UHGV virus genome: UHGV-0196552
Direction: 5' to 3' (one strand)
Length of the DNA: 13,292 bases
Source of the DNA: a virus
The notes under the pieces are model-generated. The model was not told where the DNA came from. It did no database searches and was given only the letters and a program-made list of their open reading frames with translations. The translations under genes were made by a program, and so were the position numbers. This document shows positions 1 to 13,292 of this stretch, piece after piece (the stretch's first letter is position 1; every line of letters begins with the position of its first letter).

Positions 1-118
1 ATTCAGTATCTGATACAGCAATATGGGATTTTAGATAGTAAGTAAGGGTTTGGTACTTTCACTTTAGAAAGGTACTAACAGTACTTCAGGATGAAGTACT
101 TAGTTTCAAGGATGAAAT

Positions 119-619
119 ATGAAAAAGGAAAAAAGAAATGACCTAAAGGGTCAGGAATTACCACATGTAAAACAAGCACTACGAGTATGGAATAATTTTC
201 ACTCAAGAGTACGTAATAACATCAATTACAGTACTGTTACCATCTGCGATGACTGGTATCGGTTTAGTGATTTTTATTATTGGTATGTCGAAAATATTGT
301 TGATGGTTGGCATTTAGATAAAGATATATTAGGAGGTAATGAGTACGGCCCAAGTAACTGCATCTTTGTACCGAGAGAAGTAAATCAATTGTTCCGTAAA
401 GTACCAACATCATTATCAACCGGTGTTGTCGTTAATCATAAGGGCTATCAAGCACAAGCAACATTTGATAAGAAAGGACATAAGTTTGGGACATACCCAA
501 CGATAGAAGAAGCTCATGCTGCTTATGTTGTTGGGCGTAAATCATATATCTATAAAATATCGCAGCAGTATAAATCATTTCCAAAACTTAGTGCGATACT
601 ATTACAAAAATCAAAATAA
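119..619 (+). CDS. HNH/AP2-type homing-endonuclease-like protein (degenerate HNH_3-like segment plus AP2-like DNA-binding segment)
   Basis: ATG at 119 with AAGGA 6 nt upstream. Segment WHLDKDILGGNEYGPSNCIFVPREVN resembles the HNH_3 pattern (H-x-D...N...N); GVVVNHKGYQAQATFDKKGHKFGTYPTIEEAHAAY resembles the AP2 pattern (GV..k.gkW.Aqi....k...LG.F.t.eEAa.AY). The usual His-His pair is reduced to WH, so activity is uncertain. Confidence 0.5.
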   Translation: MKKEKRNDLKGQELPHVKQALRVWNNFHSRVRNNINYSTVTICDDWYRFSDFYYWYVENIVDGWHLDKDILGGNEYGPSNCIFVPREVNQLFRKVPTSLSTGVVVNHKGYQAQATFDKKGHKFGTYPTIEEAHAAYVVGRKSYIYKISQQYKSFPKLSAILLQKSK

Positions 620-684
620 CGAAATGGCCTGAGTACTGGAAATACTACAGGCCAATATTAACATCTATCATAGGGGTATTTATT

Positions 685-1209
685 ATGACAAAAAAGAAAG
701 AGCCGCATGAAATAAAGAAACGTGGACGAAAACCAAAAAAACACGATAATGCAGAATTACAAGATCATCTAAGGGGAGTACGCCATCTCAATCAACTTAC
801 AGATGAAGCACGTAGAGTAATATCAAACTCTGTTAAAAGTTACTTTGAAAAGAACAAGAAACGTAAGACTTTCTCAAACAAGAATATGCTACTTCTGGTT
901 ACATCGACTCGATACATCACAGATGAAGCGATAAAGAACAATATCGAGTACTTTGCTGCCTTTACACTCAATGAGTACGGCGATTCCTCAGTACGAGATT
1001 ATAAGATGGTCACGATTGCTATATGTGAAGGCCTGAATGCGATTCTAAGTAGTGGTAAGCCGGTAAGAAGTGATACACCAGAGGGAGCACAGTACTTAAC
1101 TGGTGAAGAAGCATATCAACTACGTATGGCTTTAGATGGTGGCTGTACTAAGGCAGATCTACTAAAGGTTATAGCTACAATTTATCCCGAATTAAGACAT
1201 TCTAAGTAG
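685..1209 (+). CDS. hypothetical protein with strongly basic N-terminus (KKRGRKPKK, AT-hook-like); possible DNA-binding protein
   Basis: 174-aa ORF with ATG start, same strand and 65 nt downstream of the previous gene. No family recognised by eye. Confidence 0.45.
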   Translation: MTKKKEPHEIKKRGRKPKKHDNAELQDHLRGVRHLNQLTDEARRVISNSVKSYFEKNKKRKTFSNKNMLLLVTSTRYITDEAIKNNIEYFAAFTLNEYGDSSVRDYKMVTIAICEGLNAILSSGKPVRSDTPEGAQYLTGEEAYQLRMALDGGCTKADLLKVIATIYPELRHSK

Positions 1210-1758
1210 TGTTTTAATAACGGTTCAAATGTCGTAATTAAGGTTAAATTGGGTTTTTATGGGGTTGATTAGTGTTGCTTGCACTAGATATAGTATCTAA
1301 AATGAGTTAAAACACACTATATATGGGGTGTCCCGAATTTCGACACCATAATTAGAAATTATTAAGACCTCTTGTACTACGTCCAAATCGGTCTTTGAGT
1401 GCCTACACTCCCTGCGGTCGTATAGTCACTGAAAAACAAATTAAACCGATCCTTGCGTTTTTTCTCGCTAGTACTCGAAAAGAACTAAGGGATTTACTCG
1501 CTTTCGCTCAGACAAGTAACAGTACTGACTAAACTATTGGGGGTCGGCATATGGCCTAAAGTTCGCTTCGCTCTTTTTGAAGTATCTACGCGGGCTAAGC
1601 CCTTGTTGGGGTTATCGGGCTGTTTAAGCCCTTACTGAAGTCATCAAATCCTCTAACGACACGAAGCAGTACTATCAAGTTACATACATTAAAGTATGGA
1701 ATGTCAATGAGTTGAGTTGTCCTCTAAGTCGAGAGAAGGGCACATGTACATAGAAATA
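1210..1758. other. structured non-coding region between convergent genes; candidate sRNA or regulatory locus
   Basis: No ORF of 60 aa or more on either strand in the track. GC visibly higher than flanks. Hairpin GGTGTC-N9-GACACC at about 1327-1347. Direct repeats CGCTTTCGCTC (about 1499) and CGCTTCGCTC (about 1565). Two near-identical hairpins CGGGCT-A-AGCCCTT (about 1591) and CGGGCT-GTTTA-AGCCCTT (about 1616). Confidence 0.3.
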
Positions 1759-2472
1759 TCATACTTCGAATAACTCTCGGAATTTGTAATTGTGAATTTT
1801 CCCATGAATAGATATTCCGTTCTGATACGAAGATAAGGCCTCAGCATAATATTCATTGAAATGATTCCCAAAAAGCACAAAAAATCTCTTGTCATCAATA
1901 AATTCTGATAAGGCGTTTCGCAAATTGAATGTGGCATTAGATAGCGACATAATAGTGTTTTGATGAGCATCCAATAACTGCATTAGTTCATTTTCTTTTA
2001 AAATCTTAACATCCCATCGTTTTAATGAATGAAATCTCAACTTAACATCTTCTAGCTTTAATTTGTTATTTTCTATTGAGATCCTTAACTCATCAAGTGA
2101 TATTATCACTTTTGCTTTATCAGCTTGGTTTTCGAAAAAGTTAGAGCGATAGTAAATGTCAGCCTCCGCTAATACATTGATAAATGAGTCATGTACTGGA
2201 GAAACTGAATCCATCTCATTGAGTAATGATTCAGCCTTTTCTAATCCGAGTGTTCGCGTTTTTTCTGATAGCCAATCTTTAGCATTAATTGCTGCATATA
2301 ATGCAGCACCTGCCATTACTATATTACACAAAACAGAAATCCAATCACTTACGCTTCCCCATTCAAAGCCATTAGAATCAGAAAATAGTACTTTAATTAA
2401 AGCTAATATCGCTACCCATAGAAGTACTATGACGGTAGCAACTAATAATTTGTTCCATCCTTCAACTTTCAC
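1759..2472 (-). CDS. two-TM membrane protein with helical cytoplasmic domain; candidate superinfection-exclusion or abortive-infection effector
   Basis: 237-aa ORF. The start codon at 2470-2472 is GTG on the minus strand (the track shows it as M). Two hydrophobic segments near the N-terminus (LLVATVIVLLWVAILALIKVLF and ISVLCNIVMAGAALYAAI) followed by about 170 aa that look helical. Very AT-rich. Confidence 0.55.
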   Translation of the reverse strand: MKVEGWNKLLVATVIVLLWVAILALIKVLFSDSNGFEWGSVSDWISVLCNIVMAGAALYAAINAKDWLSEKTRTLGLEKAESLLNEMDSVSPVHDSFINVLAEADIYYRSNFFENQADKAKVIISLDELRISIENNKLKLEDVKLRFHSLKRWDVKILKENELMQLLDAHQNTIMSLSNATFNLRNALSEFIDDKRFFVLFGNHFNEYYAEALSSYQNGISIHGKIHNYKFRELFEV

Positions 2473-2704
2473 TTTCTTAACCCGTAGAATGGTTCATGGA
2501 TGAAAAATTTTACCATTTGCAGTTATGTTTCGTAAATGATCATCGTAGAGTGAAAATTTAACTTAAGTGGATGTTGAGACGTCATTAGATGGCGTTGTAC
2601 TGGTTGAGATCACGATTTCTATGAAAAAAACGGGGCTGGTTGCTTTGAACTGGTTAACATAGTGGGATTATAAGCACCGAAGAAGTACTTCAGCAGGAGT
2701 AGAT

Positions 2705-3433
2705 ATGAACAGAAAGCAATTCATCCAGTCACACGGAGCTACTTGCAGTAACTGGACGTGGAGTTGGTCATTTGTTAACCATGAAAAGAAGATGGTCATC
2801 TTTGGGTCATGGGATGTTGAGAGTGAACAAGAGCGGTCTGTAATACTCCGGGAGAAATGGGAATACAACTCAAACAACAAAAAACAACCGGGATACACCC
2901 AGGCACTGGAACACATCCGTTTAGCCCATGAAGGCTACGAACTTTACACCTTCAATATGGTTTTCGCAGAACACCCTGAGAATCCTGAAATTGCAGTAAT
3001 CAAGGATTTTGAGCGTAAATTAAACAAGCGATATCTTCGTAAAGAAGGTGTTGTTTGGTATGCAGACTTCTTACCTAATCCATTCCCTGATGAAATTCCT
3101 TCAGGAGAGAGTTTTGTTGAAGGTGCAAAGACTCAAGTAACAGTGAACTACTACGAACGCGATCCAAAGGCCAGACAAGCCTGCATCCAGCATCACGGTA
3201 CTGCCTGTAAATGCTGTGGCTTCGATTTTGAGAAGGTCTATGGTACACATGGCCGTGGGTTCATTCATGTACATCACATCAAGCCGCTTCATACGATTGG
3301 GGAAAACTATGTGGTCAATCCCGTAACAGATATGATCCCATTATGTCCAAACTGCCATGCAATGGTACATCACGGAAGCGAAGTACTTCCAATTGCAGAT
3401 TTGAAAAAGAAAATGACATTCTGGAGCGAGTAA
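2705..3433 (+). CDS. McrA-like HNH nuclease: about 170-aa N-terminal domain of unknown function plus C-terminal HNH (beta-beta-alpha-Me) motif
   Basis: Strong RBS AGGAG 5 nt before ATG 2705. C-terminus contains CKCCGF...GFIHVHHIKPL...LCPNCHAMVHH, the classic Cys-pair, HH, Cys-x2-Cys-His HNH signature as in McrA-type enzymes. N-terminal domain is Trp-rich (WTWSWSF, GSWD). Confidence 0.75.
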   Translation: MNRKQFIQSHGATCSNWTWSWSFVNHEKKMVIFGSWDVESEQERSVILREKWEYNSNNKKQPGYTQALEHIRLAHEGYELYTFNMVFAEHPENPEIAVIKDFERKLNKRYLRKEGVVWYADFLPNPFPDEIPSGESFVEGAKTQVTVNYYERDPKARQACIQHHGTACKCCGFDFEKVYGTHGRGFIHVHHIKPLHTIGENYVVNPVTDMIPLCPNCHAMVHHGSEVLPIADLKKKMTFWSE

Positions 3434-4225
3434 ATGGATTTATCACAATTGAGCAACGTCGAATTGATGCAACTGAATCAGTTGACGCTTGATGAGTTAG
3501 AACGACGAGAGGTTATCAGAACCAGAAACAATCCTATCAGTGAGTACACTGAATGGCTGGTTGCGGATAAGATGCAAATGGTACTGGCTGCACCTAGTAC
3601 TAAAGGGTATGACGCTACAACAACTGACGATCGAAAAATTCAGATTAAGTCTCGTAAGAATAATTTAAAAAACCAATCATTAATTCTTGGGATTATCAGA
3701 AATTATGATCTGAACCAATTCGATGAACTCATTGCCGTAATATATAACCATGATTTCTCAATTCGTTATGCCATATCCATACCACATGAATTAGTGAAGG
3801 AATATGGTTTTTATAATGAGCATCAAAATGGTTACACTTTAAGAATAAGCAATTTATTACTTAACGATCCACGTGTAACAGATATCATTGAATTTATTGA
3901 CCCAGACACTGAACGTTCAAAGGAAGAGATCACGGTGAAGCCAGATTCAAACACTATCCGGGATGTACAGACAATAGGAATGCAGACATTTGTTGAGTAC
4001 TATCAGTATGTTGAAAGTGGTATGAACACAACTGATCTTGTTGAAAAGATGGTAACTGACCATCCAGAATGGAAGGAAAGTACTGCAAGAACTAAGGCAT
4101 CTTCAATGCGAAGAGTATTCAAGAATGGCGACAACATTGAAGTACTAAAAATCATCTATAAGTCGAATCACCCAGCAATAACGCATGAGATTAAGAGTAA
4201 ACTGATGACGCGTTGGGATAAATGA
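3434..4225 (+). CDS. hypothetical protein translationally coupled to the HNH nuclease; N-terminal region has a possible Mrr-like PD-(D/E)xK signature
   Basis: ATG 3434 directly follows the TAA of the upstream gene (3431-3433), with GGAG 8 nt upstream. SEYTEW...KGYD...DDRKIQIKS fits E...D...(Q/E)xK spacing of restriction-endonuclease-fold proteins such as Mrr. This is a weak, motif-only assignment. Confidence 0.5.
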   Translation: MDLSQLSNVELMQLNQLTLDELERREVIRTRNNPISEYTEWLVADKMQMVLAAPSTKGYDATTTDDRKIQIKSRKNNLKNQSLILGIIRNYDLNQFDELIAVIYNHDFSIRYAISIPHELVKEYGFYNEHQNGYTLRISNLLLNDPRVTDIIEFIDPDTERSKEEITVKPDSNTIRDVQTIGMQTFVEYYQYVESGMNTTDLVEKMVTDHPEWKESTARTKASSMRRVFKNGDNIEVLKIIYKSNHPAITHEIKSKLMTRWDK

Positions 4226-4271
4226 ACAAAGTTTGGGTTATATTTTTGACGCAAAAAGATATAATTGTAGT

Positions 4272-4321
4272 ACTTCCACCTTTCGCATTTGGGTAGGTTT
4301 GTTTGGGCGATTGGTGGAAGT
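4272..4321. terminator. 9-bp inverted repeat (ACTTCCACC ... GGTGGAAGT) between convergent genes; possible bidirectional terminator or regulatory structure
   Basis: Arms at 4272-4280 and 4313-4321 are perfect reverse complements. The loop is about 32 nt, which is long for a classical intrinsic terminator. Confidence 0.25.
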
Positions 4322-4325
4322 GCTA

Positions 4326-4637
4326 TCAAAACGGTAATTCTCCCTGCTCATAGAACCATCCATCTTCATCATGCTGCTTATAGACGGCATTCTCAGTACT
4401 CAGATATTGCAAACCTTCCAGTACTGAACTTAGCGGCGTTTCCAGTATGAACACGAAGCAATCACGCTCAATCGTGCCTAACCAGTATGTACCTTGCTGG
4501 TTCTGGAAGAAAACGCGATCCCCATATGAAAACTCATCAAGACTGTATCCCCAATAGCAGACCTTAGCCCATTGGCCTAAATGCTCAAACTGCTGCACCC
4601 CGCGTTTGATTGCCAGATCAAAACCGTTCTTGCCCAT
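4326..4637 (-). CDS. hypothetical small protein (103 aa), Trp/Tyr-rich
   Basis: ATG start with GAGG-type RBS about 9 nt upstream on the minus strand. GC higher than neighbouring AT-rich genes. No family recognised. Confidence 0.5.
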   Translation of the reverse strand: MGKNGFDLAIKRGVQQFEHLGQWAKVCYWGYSLDEFSYGDRVFFQNQQGTYWLGTIERDCFVFILETPLSSVLEGLQYLSTENAVYKQHDEDGWFYEQGELPF

Positions 4638-4743
4638 ACTATGCCTCTACATTAATACTGGTTATCCATACAGTATTGCATCACATTTCGCACAGATCCA
4701 GCCATCAAAATACTTACCACTAAAAACGGTAGAAATGTAATTA

Positions 4744-4813
4744 TCGATCATTTTAATTTGATCAATGGTTAAAAATGATCAATTATCAATCAGTTATGAC
4801 AACTGAGAGATCA
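4744..4813. promoter_or_regulatory. divergent promoter region with clustered GATC sites and TTGATCAA-type palindromes; operator-like
   Basis: Four GATC within about 70 bp (about 4745, 4760, 4777, 4809). Palindrome TTGATCAA at 4758-4765 and related ATGATCAAT at 4775-4783, spaced about 17 bp centre to centre. A DnaA-box-like TTATCCATA lies at 4662-4670. Confidence 0.3.
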
Positions 4814-4815
4814 AC

Positions 4816-5325
4816 ATGAAACTCGAACATTGGGCAATTCCGATCACTTCATTGGACGGTATGTTACTCGGCGTAGAGCTGGAAACCCGTGTACTGATAA
4901 ACGGTTGCCAGGTACTGATGGGGGCAGGAAAAGAAAGTGAATATATCCGTCACGTGGTCTATCAGAACCAGTTAAGAATGATTCAGGGTAAAGCCGCATG
5001 GTTCAAAGAAAAGGGGCTGTTGTGCGTGCTCAGTACTGGCACAGGTACACGCTATGAAGATCTACCATTCATACGGTACATGGCTGCTGAACCACTGCTA
5101 ACGGACGGTTACGACTTAGTTCGACTAAATAGACGGTTCACTGAAGAACACATAGAGCGGCTGATCTTCCCGGTACTCATCAATAACATCATGCAGTACT
5201 GCGACAAGGTGATCGTACAAGTCAGCAGCAATCGAAATCACAGGATTTTACGAGAGTCGGGGGTATGGGCAGTACAGGGAGAGTACAGGCCAATCCGCTT
5301 TGAACAATGCGAACAACTTCTATAG
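4816..5325 (+). CDS. compact, degenerate EAL-like domain protein (probably catalytically inactive c-di-GMP phosphodiesterase homologue)
   Basis: Four EAL-like motifs in the right order: PITSLDGMLLGVELETR (compare YQPIVDL.TG.IVGAEALLRW), LSTGTGTRY (compare DDFGTGYSS, with DD lost), DLVRLNRRF (compare LKIDRSF), VQVSSN...VQGEYRP (compare EGVE...QGY.FSRP, with EGVE lost). Only 169 aa, shorter than a canonical EAL domain. Confidence 0.45.
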   Translation: MKLEHWAIPITSLDGMLLGVELETRVLINGCQVLMGAGKESEYIRHVVYQNQLRMIQGKAAWFKEKGLLCVLSTGTGTRYEDLPFIRYMAAEPLLTDGYDLVRLNRRFTEEHIERLIFPVLINNIMQYCDKVIVQVSSNRNHRILRESGVWAVQGEYRPIRFEQCEQLL

Positions 5326-5335
5326 GGATATAACA

Positions 5336-5608
5336 ATGAAAATACTAATCGTCATGTTGGTAGTACTGCTCACAGGCTGCGGCAGCGTACATCACTCATT
5401 CATGGATAAAGCCTTTGTCGGCAACGTTGATAACAAGGCTACAATAGTACTGTTCGACGCTGGCACACGAAACGGGGTGAAGTACTACCGGCCTCAGTTC
5501 CAGAGTGATTGTGGCCGCACCTACAATCCGATTTACCAGGTGGACAATGGCAGTACTACATGCCATATACGAGAGGAAAGAATTAAAAAAATGCATCAAT
5601 ATAGATAA
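5336..5608 (+). CDS. small lipoprotein (signal peptide with lipobox LTGC); candidate moron or superinfection-exclusion lipoprotein
   Basis: The track ORF 5300-5608 begins with a TTG shown as M. The internal ATG at 5336 has an AGGGA RBS about 7 nt upstream and begins MKILIVMLVVLLTGC, a textbook lipoprotein signal. Mature part has several Cys. Confidence 0.6.
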   Translation: MKILIVMLVVLLTGCGSVHHSFMDKAFVGNVDNKATIVLFDAGTRNGVKYYRPQFQSDCGRTYNPIYQVDNGSTTCHIREERIKKMHQYR

Positions 5609-5688
5609 TAAACAAAAATCAAAGAGATAGAATTATTAAATTATTAAGTGTATGTGGCATGATGAAAAATTAAATAATATATAATACC

Positions 5689-5718
5689 CTCATGCTGTTA
5701 TTGATAAAACAGCATGAG
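5689..5718. terminator. 11-bp perfect inverted repeat hairpin between convergent genes; probable bidirectional terminator
   Basis: CTCATGCTGTT (5689-5699) and AACAGCATGAG (5708-5718) are exact reverse complements with an 8-nt loop. Lies between the lipoprotein gene (ends 5608, +) and the DUF3800 gene (ends 5729, -). Flanks are AT-rich but there is no clean T-run. Confidence 0.4.
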
Positions 5719-5728
5719 AATATATATC

Positions 5729-6883
5729 TCAACGTAGCATGGCTAATGTTCTGGAAATTCTTATTATATCCTTCTCAATATCATCTAAAACAGGAGTTGA
5801 GTTTCTGCTTCGCTCTGCAATTTCTTGCAAAATATATCTATTTAAATGGTTGTTAACATTTTTAGGGTCAAGGTTTTCTGGTGTGGGAACAACACAGCAC
5901 TGCCAATAAAAAATCTCATCTTCAAAATGATTTAGCCATTTAGAATGATATTTTTCTTTCGATTTTTTCTTGTTAAGTACATAAATGCTAGCCGCAGCTA
6001 CCACATCCGCAATTTGTATACCATGCGTGACTTTAGAATCAGAAAGAATCATTGGCTCAGATAGCTTAAATGTGATCGGGATTTTTTTATCATGAAAAGT
6101 CTCGAACACAATCTCATCATTGCCTATCATCTCATTGAATGAGTCCTGATGAGTAATTAATGGTTTTGAGCTGTCGCATATAGCTCTCAATGTACCAAAC
6201 TTACTACTCATATCGCACAGGAGATTATAAAGAGAAGTCGTTGTCAAATCTAATAACCACTTATCAATCCCAGTACCCTCAAGGCCTTCATATTCTTCTT
6301 CAATTATAGAGATGTTATTCTTGGCGAAATCATGAATGTCCATCATAATTTCAGAATTTTTAGAACCAACAACTGGTTCGATAAAACTATTAACCAATAT
6401 TTTACCTCGTGAAAAATCTTCAAATCGCGAATGTAATAGTTCTGAATATTCATCCTTAGCTATTAAAGAAAAATACATTATATTTGAGATGAATAGGTGA
6501 AATTTAAGGTTGTAAAAAATTGAGCTTTTAGCTGCTAATACTGGCTCAAAAATATATTCGAAGAATTTTCCTGAGAGGGCATATTTTTTTTCGTTTACAA
6601 CCACACGCATACGACCACGGAAATGATTAAGTATTTCATCTACGGCTGGTTGAAATCTCTTGCTATTTACGAGAGTGCTACCTTTTAGCTCTTCGGCTGC
6701 GATCGAGTACTTGTTTATTATATAATCAACAAACTGTTTACTTTCCTCATCATCAGTCACGACTGCTGCGTAACTAAAAAAAGGCTGATCTTTTGAAAGT
6801 AAGTTATTACCAGTGAATCCTGATTCATCGAAATATACATTCTTTACCAATTTGGTCATTCCTTTATGAGCTACAATGTGCAT
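5729..6883 (-). CDS. DUF3800-family protein
   Basis: N-terminal VYFDESGFTG and C-terminal HGIQIADVVAAA match the DES and Q-x-x-D motifs I recall for DUF3800. 384 aa, very AT-rich. The start could be the ATG at 6883 or an internal ATG 8 codons downstream; neither has a clean RBS. Confidence 0.65.
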   Translation of the reverse strand: MHIVAHKGMTKLVKNVYFDESGFTGNNLLSKDQPFFSYAAVVTDDEESKQFVDYIINKYSIAAEELKGSTLVNSKRFQPAVDEILNHFRGRMRVVVNEKKYALSGKFFEYIFEPVLAAKSSIFYNLKFHLFISNIMYFSLIAKDEYSELLHSRFEDFSRGKILVNSFIEPVVGSKNSEIMMDIHDFAKNNISIIEEEYEGLEGTGIDKWLLDLTTTSLYNLLCDMSSKFGTLRAICDSSKPLITHQDSFNEMIGNDEIVFETFHDKKIPITFKLSEPMILSDSKVTHGIQIADVVAAASIYVLNKKKSKEKYHSKWLNHFEDEIFYWQCCVVPTPENLDPKNVNNHLNRYILQEIAERSRNSTPVLDDIEKDIIRISRTLAMLR

Positions 6884-6978
6884 GTGCTATTAATATAACA
6901 TTGTAATAATGCTAATGTAAAATAGAATGTAAGTATTTTTAAGCAAGCTAATTAAGTTAAATTACTAATTAAGGTACT

Positions 6979-7060
6979 CCGGCAGCCCAGCTTAGAACGC
7001 GAGTTTTCGGCACCGGATTCTTTAAGTTATGTGTGAAGTTTAGATAGCTTCCCGCACCGC
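6979..7060. other. GC-rich island in an otherwise AT-rich intergenic region; possible cos-like packaging site
   Basis: CGCGAGTTTTCGG (6998-7010) followed by CCGGATTCTTTAAG resembles, from memory, lambda left-end sequence CGCGGGTTTTCGC ... CCGGTTTAAGG. Three related GC-rich repeats: CCGGCAGCCC (6979), CGGCACCGG (7008), CCGCACCGC (7052). Confidence 0.2.
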
Positions 7061-7062
7061 AC

Positions 7063-7626
7063 TTAGCAAAGTACAACACCTATTTCATTTAACGCACAAT
7101 CGCAATGACGGTTTGTCGGACATTCGCATAATTTGAATACTGCATAAGATCCTTTAAGGGTATCGGTTACATACTTGTCCATTTCTTCAACTACAGATGA
7201 TGAGCAATATAAATGAAAACCAACACAGAAAGAATTTCGCATCGGATACTTACATTCTTGTATAGAGTTGAGTTTCAAATGGTCTGCTTGCAATCCTCTT
7301 TTTAAGGCAGATGAACGCTTAGTACATTTCAGCTCAATAAAGATATAGTCTTCAAAAAGGGTATCTTTTTCTCTCATTATTATATCGATTTTTGAGAGCT
7401 TGCTTGCAGGGAAATTATTAGGGTCAAGAAAAGCTGTAACTTCACGTTTAACTTCATATTTTCTTTTTTTGTTAAGGAAGTGCTCAAATTCAATTTGTAG
7501 CCATTTTTCCCAATCATTAGTTTCATTACTGACGAAGGAATACAGACGCCTCTTTATATCTTCATTCTTTAGGAAGCTATTCAGTAACTTTACCAGCAAA
7601 GAAAAATCATTGTTGCGGTCTGACAT
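7063..7626 (-). CDS. PD-(D/E)xK-like nuclease with C-terminal Cys cluster
   Basis: WLQIEFEHF (acidic motif I), KIDIIM (Asp) and IFIELKC (E-x-K) match restriction-endonuclease-fold spacing. C-terminal CECPTNRHCDC (C-x-C-x5-C-x-C) could bind a metal or Fe-S cluster, reminiscent of Cas4/RecB-family nucleases. ATG at 7626, 38 bp from the divergent terS start. Confidence 0.55.
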   Translation of the reverse strand: MSDRNNDFSLLVKLLNSFLKNEDIKRRLYSFVSNETNDWEKWLQIEFEHFLNKKRKYEVKREVTAFLDPNNFPASKLSKIDIIMREKDTLFEDYIFIELKCTKRSSALKRGLQADHLKLNSIQECKYPMRNSFCVGFHLYCSSSVVEEMDKYVTDTLKGSYAVFKLCECPTNRHCDCALNEIGVVLC

Positions 7627-7640
7627 AGTGATCTCAATAA

Positions 7641-10008
<2,368 letters not shown>

Positions 10009-10011
10009 TAA

Positions 10012-13292
<3,281 letters not shown>

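Follow-up and report, generated by a model that had tools for sequence, protein, structure and literature searches.

Cos-adjacent hotspots that carry old, tin, PARIS and other genes have been described in P2-like phages and P4 satellites (Rousset et al., 2022, PMC9122126). DUF3800 has been described as an RNase H-fold partner or fused domain of type VII retrons and, as TPR-DUF3800, as an accessory of Cas12a2 and VI-F loci, and DUF3800 genes elsewhere are associated with non-coding RNAs (ncRNAs) (PMC5737381). Here, we analyzed a stretch of 13,292 nucleotides from the virus genome UHGV-0196552 (hereafter, the window), in which two genes, ORF B and a DUF3800 gene, lie beside the gene terS. An earlier note on this DNA had reported two minus-strand genes, the upstream one of which begins 38 bp from the terS ATG, and both are present as it described. 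We consider that they are best explained as two independent single-gene accessory nucleases in a terS-proximal prophage hotspot, with a presumed role in exclusion, and we favor this explanation, although not strongly.

The locus resembles the P2/P4 hotspots in that it is a short, high-turnover locus between conserved anchors near packaging genes, with putative exclusion genes of the nuclease type and an Old homologue in the corresponding slot of relatives. It differs from them in its terminase of the lambda Nu1/gpA type, its serine recombinase, the division of the variable region into two slots by an intervening element, and a cos position that is only putative. The DUF3800 gene shares the Pfam domain, the predicted RNase H2-like fold and the DE...D...D motifs with the DUF3800 proteins of retrons and Cas12a2 loci, whereas the gene in the window belongs to a solo 373-aa subfamily and was found without a reverse transcriptase, a Cas gene, a TPR domain or a known RNA motif nearby. 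ORF B shares its predicted fold and its E...D...ExK constellation with solitary PD-(D/E)xK nucleases, such as the type IV/Mrr-like enzymes, NucC and CinB. Unlike these, it could not be assigned by sequence to any family of Pfam, PADLOC or NCBIfam, consists of one small domain to which no sensor, DNA-binding or cyclic-nucleotide-binding module is joined, and carries a subclade-specific CxCx5CxC cluster.

We compared the distribution of the two genes across related phages and prophages. Homologues of ORF B (27–100% identical) are divergent from terS in 48 IMG/VR loci, 46 of which have a readable adjoining terS, and in seven further Logan/ENA lineages. A DUF3800 gene follows ORF B only in contigs that are 98–100% identical to the window, and the combination was seen in four IMG/VR contigs, one RefSeq genome and Logan runs, all of which represent one clone. 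When 51 other DUF3800 loci (L002 and L064–L114) were compared, none (0/51) contained an ORF of the ORF B family, and no other ORF B lineage contained a DUF3800 gene. Furthermore, a DUF3800 gene 86–93% identical to that of the window adjoins terS without ORF B in five relatives, E. coli G3/10 (L002) and four IMG/VR phages (L064–L067). In a sample anchored on terL, ORF B occurred in approximately 22 of 51 loci, and both genes occurred jointly only in the clone of the window; one relative with a 95% identical terL (L119) has neither gene. Conserved co-occurrence and adjacency in unrelated genomes, by which a two-gene defense system would be recognized, were not found. Because the two genes are separated by a conserved element of about 80 bp, ORF B is assigned to slot A, on the terS side, and the DUF3800 gene to slot B. 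Phages with 88–92% identical terL sequences can have ORF B alleles that share only 38% identity, so we consider that these alleles have been exchanged. Based on these comparisons, we conclude with considerable confidence that ORF B and the DUF3800 gene are independent accessory genes and not one system, and the combination should not be entered in defense catalogues as a two-gene system.

The gene order in this lineage is terS, slot A, the conserved element, slot B, and a block consisting of the lipoprotein-like gene, orf169 and orf103. In relatives, homologues of orf169 and orf103 come after the lipoprotein-like gene, whose own homologues flank the variable region in many genomes. The earlier note had suggested looking for other cargo at the terS-proximal position, and related phages do carry it: slot A is empty or contains an Old-family nuclease (PADLOC Old, 4.7e-75), a PLD nuclease or small unknown ORFs, and the cargo of slot B is a PLD/DrmC-like protein, a group of three genes that includes PDC-M45A/DuOB (7e-55) and mSLOG+DUF4326, or one of many unknown genes. 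Approximately 93 cargo clusters were counted downstream of ORF B in about 50 loci. A short locus with high turnover and known defense genes, anchored by terS on one side and the lipoprotein-orf169-orf103 block on the other, is what is expected of a prophage hotspot. The Old-family gene, which encodes an ATPase-Toprim nuclease, lies antisense to terS in the slot of ORF B in close relatives with 86–87% identical terL (L147, 2317–4137; L171, 2315–4135).

The two genes have also been retained in prophages that are otherwise broken. In E. coli AREA_C483 (L001, 15178–27560), terL is split by IS elements (IS3 and IS5), IS5 and ISSen4 come after it, and ORF B and the DUF3800 gene are intact at 99–100% identity; gene retention of this kind was likewise found in the decayed prophages of G3/10 and L006–L008. 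The presence of intact genes in broken prophages suggests selection at the level of the host or the lysogen. The prophages of AREA_C483 and G3/10, which are the closest RefSeq copies, are both decayed, with a group II intron inside IS3 and loss of structural genes.

ORF B encodes a protein of an unannotated family. The searches of Pfam, PHROGs, PADLOC and NCBIfam gave no model match for ORF B or 29 diverse relatives, and a sequence profile search of the PDB with ORF B returned nothing. An exhaustive HMMER search placed it in a family of 194 clusters at 50% identity, composed of stand-alone proteins of about 175–200 aa. The AlphaFold model is confident (mean pLDDT 90.5) and predicts a PD-(D/E)xK restriction-endonuclease fold with the alpha-beta-beta-beta-alpha-beta core typical of restriction-endonuclease-like proteins. 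Among 30 sequences with identities down to 18%, E46 is invariant, and D81, E98 and K100 are retained in ≥ 90%, a pattern of residue conservation that points to a catalytic D...(D/E)xK site with the upstream helix Glu. The residues conserved to about 18% identity are W39, E40, W42, Q44, E46, E62, D81, E98, K100, D115, K118 and R130; because the conservation extends this far, the E...D...ExK site can be regarded as a property of the whole family. The motifs named in the earlier note (E46/D81/E98-x-K100 and CxCx5CxC in ORF B, FDESG and QIAD in the DUF3800 protein) were all recovered. The cysteine cluster (C167-x-C-x5-C-x-C177) is limited to a phage-borne subclade, falls in a low-confidence region of the model and may represent a Zn site. 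To place the remote homologues in context, a third protein search was used, which brought three more usable members; the distant relatives are solo chromosomal genes outside phages, and ORF B is for this reason considered to be independent of the packaging genes. No adjoining methyltransferase, such as would accompany the R subunit of a type II system, was found in the window or in any relative; the sole methyltransferase observed belongs to the AREA_C483 prophage, where it lies at the far end.

Under the preferred explanation, each gene would be expressed from the prophage and would act alone against superinfecting phages as a nucleic-acid-degrading exclusion or abortive-infection factor. ORF B, in slot A, would have DNA as its target, as would be expected of a solitary nuclease with a restriction fold that is type IV-like or triggered. 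A different proposal is that ORF B is a nuclease of the phage lifecycle, which might help in cos cleavage or packaging (compare the HNH proteins of phages with HK97-type terminases), recombination and repair, or the degradation of host DNA, and which would be located near terS for co-regulation. This would account for its strict terS-divergent position over 27–100% identity and over terL divergence to about 43%, for its location between terS and an element that is possibly cos, and for its intact active site. However, the gene is missing in more than half of the close relatives, including the one with 95% identical terL; in these relatives, the slot is empty or is occupied by an Old or PLD nuclease instead. 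The exchange of alleles despite conserved terL, the solo chromosomal occurrence of distant family members, and the retention of an intact ORF B where terL is destroyed also argue against it, and we regard a lifecycle role as unlikely.

The DUF3800 assignment is well supported by profile searches. The protein matches PF12686 with 3.3e-9 (38 bits against a cutoff of 21, profile positions 1–145 of 149) and phrog_12991 with 8.5e-119. Its homologues number > 300 and extend across Proteobacteria and beyond, and all 120 of the 120 listed homologues have a precomputed PF12686 assignment. Judged from the sequence comparisons, the true start is most likely TTG 6850 and not ATG 6883, because the RefSeq annotation and nearly all homologues agree on the former, and the upstream ATG is missing in relatives. 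The conserved acidic residues comprise D8-E9 (DESG), D226, D271-S272 and Q279-x-x-D282, and no variation was seen at D8-E9-S10-G11, D226, S272, Q279 and D282 among 32 sequences of 37–93% identity. Structure prediction indicates an RNase H-like (type 2) fold, which fits the published predictions for DUF3800 in type VII retrons and Cas12a2/VI-F loci. The subfamily represented here (373 aa, phrog_12991) occurs as a solo gene, and its protein contains a large helical insert. Thus, of the two gene products for which the earlier note had called for profile searches and structure prediction, the DUF3800 domain and both folds were supported, and ORF B alone had no match in the profile collections.

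The DUF3800 gene also has regulatory signals of its own. The predicted promoter (Table 1) is kept in the four closest copies without ORF B (L002 and L064–L066); it is not found in L067, whose upstream region differs. The two CTTAATTAG repeats upstream of it show the same pattern, as they are conserved in the window, L002 and L064–L066 and are absent from L067. Downstream of the gene, the predicted hairpin is the sole terminator-like site between positions 5500 and 7800. Known partners were sought without success: the window ORFs scanned contained no RVT domain, the window contained no retron or other RNA family, PADLOC gave no match (including with its retron VII models), and no Cas gene or TPR domain was found near the DUF3800 gene. 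The known DUF3800 RNA motifs (Rfam DUF3800-I to XI, drum and skipping-rope) were absent from the window at E ≤ 1 and from 13 homologous loci at the gathering score. No neighbor was conserved as a candidate protein partner across the 51 DUF3800 loci, in which the largest shared cluster consisted of tyrosine integrases (7 loci). In an Alteromonadaceae metagenome-assembled genome (MAG) (L072, 920–1488), a distant DUF3800 homologue (41% identical) has a CRISPR array with 10 DR4-type repeats about 1.1 kb away.

In slot B, the DUF3800 gene, together with its predicted promoter, candidate operator repeats and likely terminator, forms a self-contained cassette encoding a predicted RNase H2/H3-like nuclease with a DE...D...D acidic site; under the preferred explanation, its targets would be RNA:DNA hybrids or a structured nucleic acid of the invader. 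A second proposal is that the protein serves the phage itself, either as an RNase H that removes primers and R-loops or in counter-defense against RNA:DNA hybrids or guide RNAs (retron msDNA, CRISPR). The RNase H2/H3-like fold and conserved acidic residues suit such a role, as do the ties of the family to retrons, Cas12a2 loci and ncRNAs, all of which belong to RNA–DNA hybrid biology. Against this, the gene is sporadic, occurring in few relatives, and is replaced by defense-type cargo in others. It lies antisense to the late operon with its own sigma-70-like promoter, in the manner of morons expressed in lysogens, and it remains intact in defective prophages. Its homologues are solo genes in many non-phage chromosomes, including the one near a CRISPR array mentioned above. 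We judge a role for the phage itself to be improbable, to the same degree as a lifecycle role for ORF B. Least probable, in our view, is that ORF B and the DUF3800 gene form one two-gene anti-phage or abortive-infection module (e.g., a sensor or nuclease with an effector) acquired as a single cassette, as the earlier note proposed: they are adjacent, co-oriented, 179 bp apart, both AGTACT-poor, slightly AT-richer than their neighbors and both predicted nucleases, and their combination persists in several samples, but every co-occurrence belongs to a single near-clonal contig set, neither gene is found with the other elsewhere, the DUF3800 gene stands alone beside terS in five relatives, the backbone element lies between the two, and the DUF3800 gene is provided with a predicted promoter and terminator of its own.

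Several observations weigh against the preferred explanation of two independent exclusion nucleases. PADLOC has no model for either protein, which agrees with the statement in the earlier note that no characterized defense system is involved, and most of the neighboring cargo in relatives is also unannotated. The fixed position of ORF B, divergent from terS over 27–100% identity, fits a phage-lifecycle role too, and no convincing promoter for ORF B was detected in the scanned region. A solitary restriction-fold nuclease with no neighboring methyltransferase or immunity gene would need an unexplained mechanism of self-protection. Additionally, a partner RNA of the DUF3800 protein, including a novel one, may have been missed, because DUF3800 is tied to ncRNAs elsewhere and none was detected here. 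Taking these points together with the predicted folds and the hotspot association, from which the argument is made, we regard the case for a defense role of the genes as evenly balanced, and anti-phage activity, substrates and triggers are given here as presumed properties. If the two independent nucleases do act in this way, they would be two single-gene anti-phage candidates, one from a family without any database model and the other a stand-alone form of DUF3800, a domain for which only accessory roles, with retrons and class 2 CRISPR systems, are known so far, and the region between terS and the lipoprotein block would be an anchored hotspot from which further systems could be mined, even from short contigs. 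A bolder and rather doubtful extension is that ORF B, as an undescribed PD-(D/E)xK family, and the solo DUF3800, as an RNase H2-like protein with no retron or Cas partner, are each a new single-gene anti-phage defense flanking the cos of a widespread Enterobacteriaceae prophage lineage. The hotspot would then be a discovery anchor for many more unannotated systems, and the avoidance of AGTACT by ORF B might reflect a functional link between the nuclease and this motif.

Table 1. Positions of the genes and sites of the terS-proximal region in the window.
Feature	Position	Strand	Remarks
ORF B	7063..7626	-	187 aa; unannotated PD-(D/E)xK nuclease-fold family (predicted); E46, D81, E98-x-K100
DUF3800 gene	5729..6850	-	373 aa from TTG 6850 (mechanical ORF to ATG 6883, 384 aa); predicted RNase H2/H3-like fold
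Sigma-70-like promoter of the DUF3800 gene (predicted)	6892..6921	-	TTTACA, 18 nt, TG-TATATT; best match in region, 10/12, extended -10
Two copies of CTTAATTAG (minus-strand sense)	6948..6973		17 bp between copies; adjoins the -35 on its upstream side; may be an operator of the DUF3800 cassette
Hairpin, 16 pairs, T-runs on both sides	5684..5723		Likely bidirectional terminator between the convergent lipoprotein and DUF3800 genes
Conserved backbone element, ~80 bp	6973..7050		GGTACTCC, 17-nt spacer, CGCGAGTTTTCGGCACCGG, 13 nt, TGTGTGA; separates slots A and B
Divergent intergenic region of ORF B and terS	7627..7664		38 bp; ORF B ATG 7626, terS ATG 7665
terS (7665..8213) and terL (8119..10008)	7665..10008	+	Lambda Nu1/gpA type; conserved anchor on the near side of slot A
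Small lipoprotein-like gene	5300..5608	+	102 aa; conserved backbone anchor, far side of slot B

The window is a prophage of Enterobacteriaceae, a temperate phage with a lambda-type terminase and a serine recombinase. The gene terS matches phrog_57 at 5e-22, and terL matches GpA_ATPase (5e-49) and GpA_nuclease (2e-42). A prophage of E. coli AREA_C483 matches positions 1–9175 at 97% identity over an aligned 60% of the window, and the match is broken up by insertion sequence (IS) and intron insertions; this prophage lies between yeaG and mipA and has the serine recombinase at its start. A near-identity search of the phage collection with the window found no similar record, and the phage is known only as a prophage or from metagenome contigs.

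The earlier note had pointed to the scarcity of the hexamer AGTACT (the ScaI palindrome) in the two genes, with one site in about 2 kb against about four per kb elsewhere, and this proved to be correct and striking. The window contains 49 sites in 13,292 bp against 4.4 expected, an approximately 11-fold excess, while the next commonest 6-bp palindromes occur 11 times; only one site (6706) lies between 5552 and 7934. At the flanking density, about 8 sites would be expected in the 1,898 bp of the two-gene region (Poisson P(≤ 1), about 0.003). The sites fall in each of the three reading frames (17/7/13) and also between genes, and the highest density in the window, 12.9 per kb, is in the 102-aa lipoprotein-like gene. 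The enrichment, which presumably reflects DNA-level selection or mutational bias, extends through the lineage at 2–5.7 per kb (relatives L003–L179), even at terL identities of about 43%. It peaks at 6.6–7.5 per kb between -1000 and -250, counted from the start of ORF B, in bins that take in the beginning of terL and most of terS. In ORF B, AGTACT is scarce across 48 loci of 27–100% identity: the 26.7 kb of this gene contain 12 sites, a density of 0.45 per kb, and the DNA outside it has 2.9 per kb. The gap is limited to about -250 to +750 around the gene. We also considered ORF B as the cause of the enrichment and rejected this, because the level is equal in relatives with and without ORF B (3.0 vs. 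3.1 per kb).

Since ORF B is AGTACT-poor throughout the lineage at a fixed position, the paucity is no sign of a recent joint acquisition. The description of the region as a moron cassette was supported in that it consists of accessory cargo in a variable terS-proximal region, but the joint acquisition read from AGTACT was not. The claim that the two genes are markedly more AT-rich was overstated: their GC content is indeed lower (34.4% at 5729–7626 vs. 38.2% at 7665–13292), but other parts of the window are equally low, e.g., 33.5% at 1759–2472.

The element between the slots has the lineage-wide form GGTACTCC, a variable spacer, CGCGAGTTTTCGGC and TGTGTGA, and the spacer varies in sequence and somewhat in length. 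At least 22 distinct relatives have it, whether or not they carry ORF B or the DUF3800 gene, and divergence begins directly at both of its edges. This conserved GC-rich patch, upstream of the DUF3800 gene, had also been considered as an ncRNA or a terminator of ORF B; both possibilities were rejected, as it is kept in relatives that lack either gene and RNAalifold gave no consensus structure (-1.2 kcal/mol). Like the cosN-cosB-Nu1 region of lambda, the element lies upstream of terS, at a distance of about 100–250 bp in the ORF B-less relatives examined, and its invariant core, CGCGAGTTTTCG, matches lambda nt 13–24, beside cosN, at 11/12 positions. Unlike in lambda, ORF B intervenes in the window; moreover, the match is not significant, as 413 of 2000 shuffles equal it, and no contig ends inside the element. 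We keep it as a lead only, as a candidate cos or another packaging or regulatory DNA site. If it is cos, ORF B and the DUF3800 gene would lie at opposite ends of the packaged DNA.

In relatives without ORF B (L002, 11545–11600; L064–L066, about 5790–5850), the terS ATG is directly preceded by a perfectly paired 10-bp hairpin (GTCCTCCTGA-N8-TCAGGAGGAC) and a T-run after it, and the 3' arm of the hairpin includes the AGGAGG ribosome-binding site. The hairpin may serve as a terminator, or it may regulate translation of the late operon. The window lacks it and has ORF B at this place.

Two further regions of the window were noted. The 102-aa lipoprotein-like gene has only weak matches, to the Cor-like phrog_1119 and to PD-T4-4_B, and the overlapping orf169 (within 4816–5608) has a weak C-terminal match, far under the cutoff, to NF008617, a model for c-di-GMP phosphodiesterase (7e-6); the two genes belong to the conserved backbone of the lineage. 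At positions 2705–4225, a gene for an HNH endonuclease (242 aa; PADLOC mREase_IV-like, 5e-8) is directly followed by one for a DUF6998 protein (263 aa; PADLOC mREase_II, 1e-62). This unit recurs in at least nine other E. coli chromosomes at 83.7% identity and has the appearance of a mobile module of two genes, which may be a methyl-directed restriction pair.

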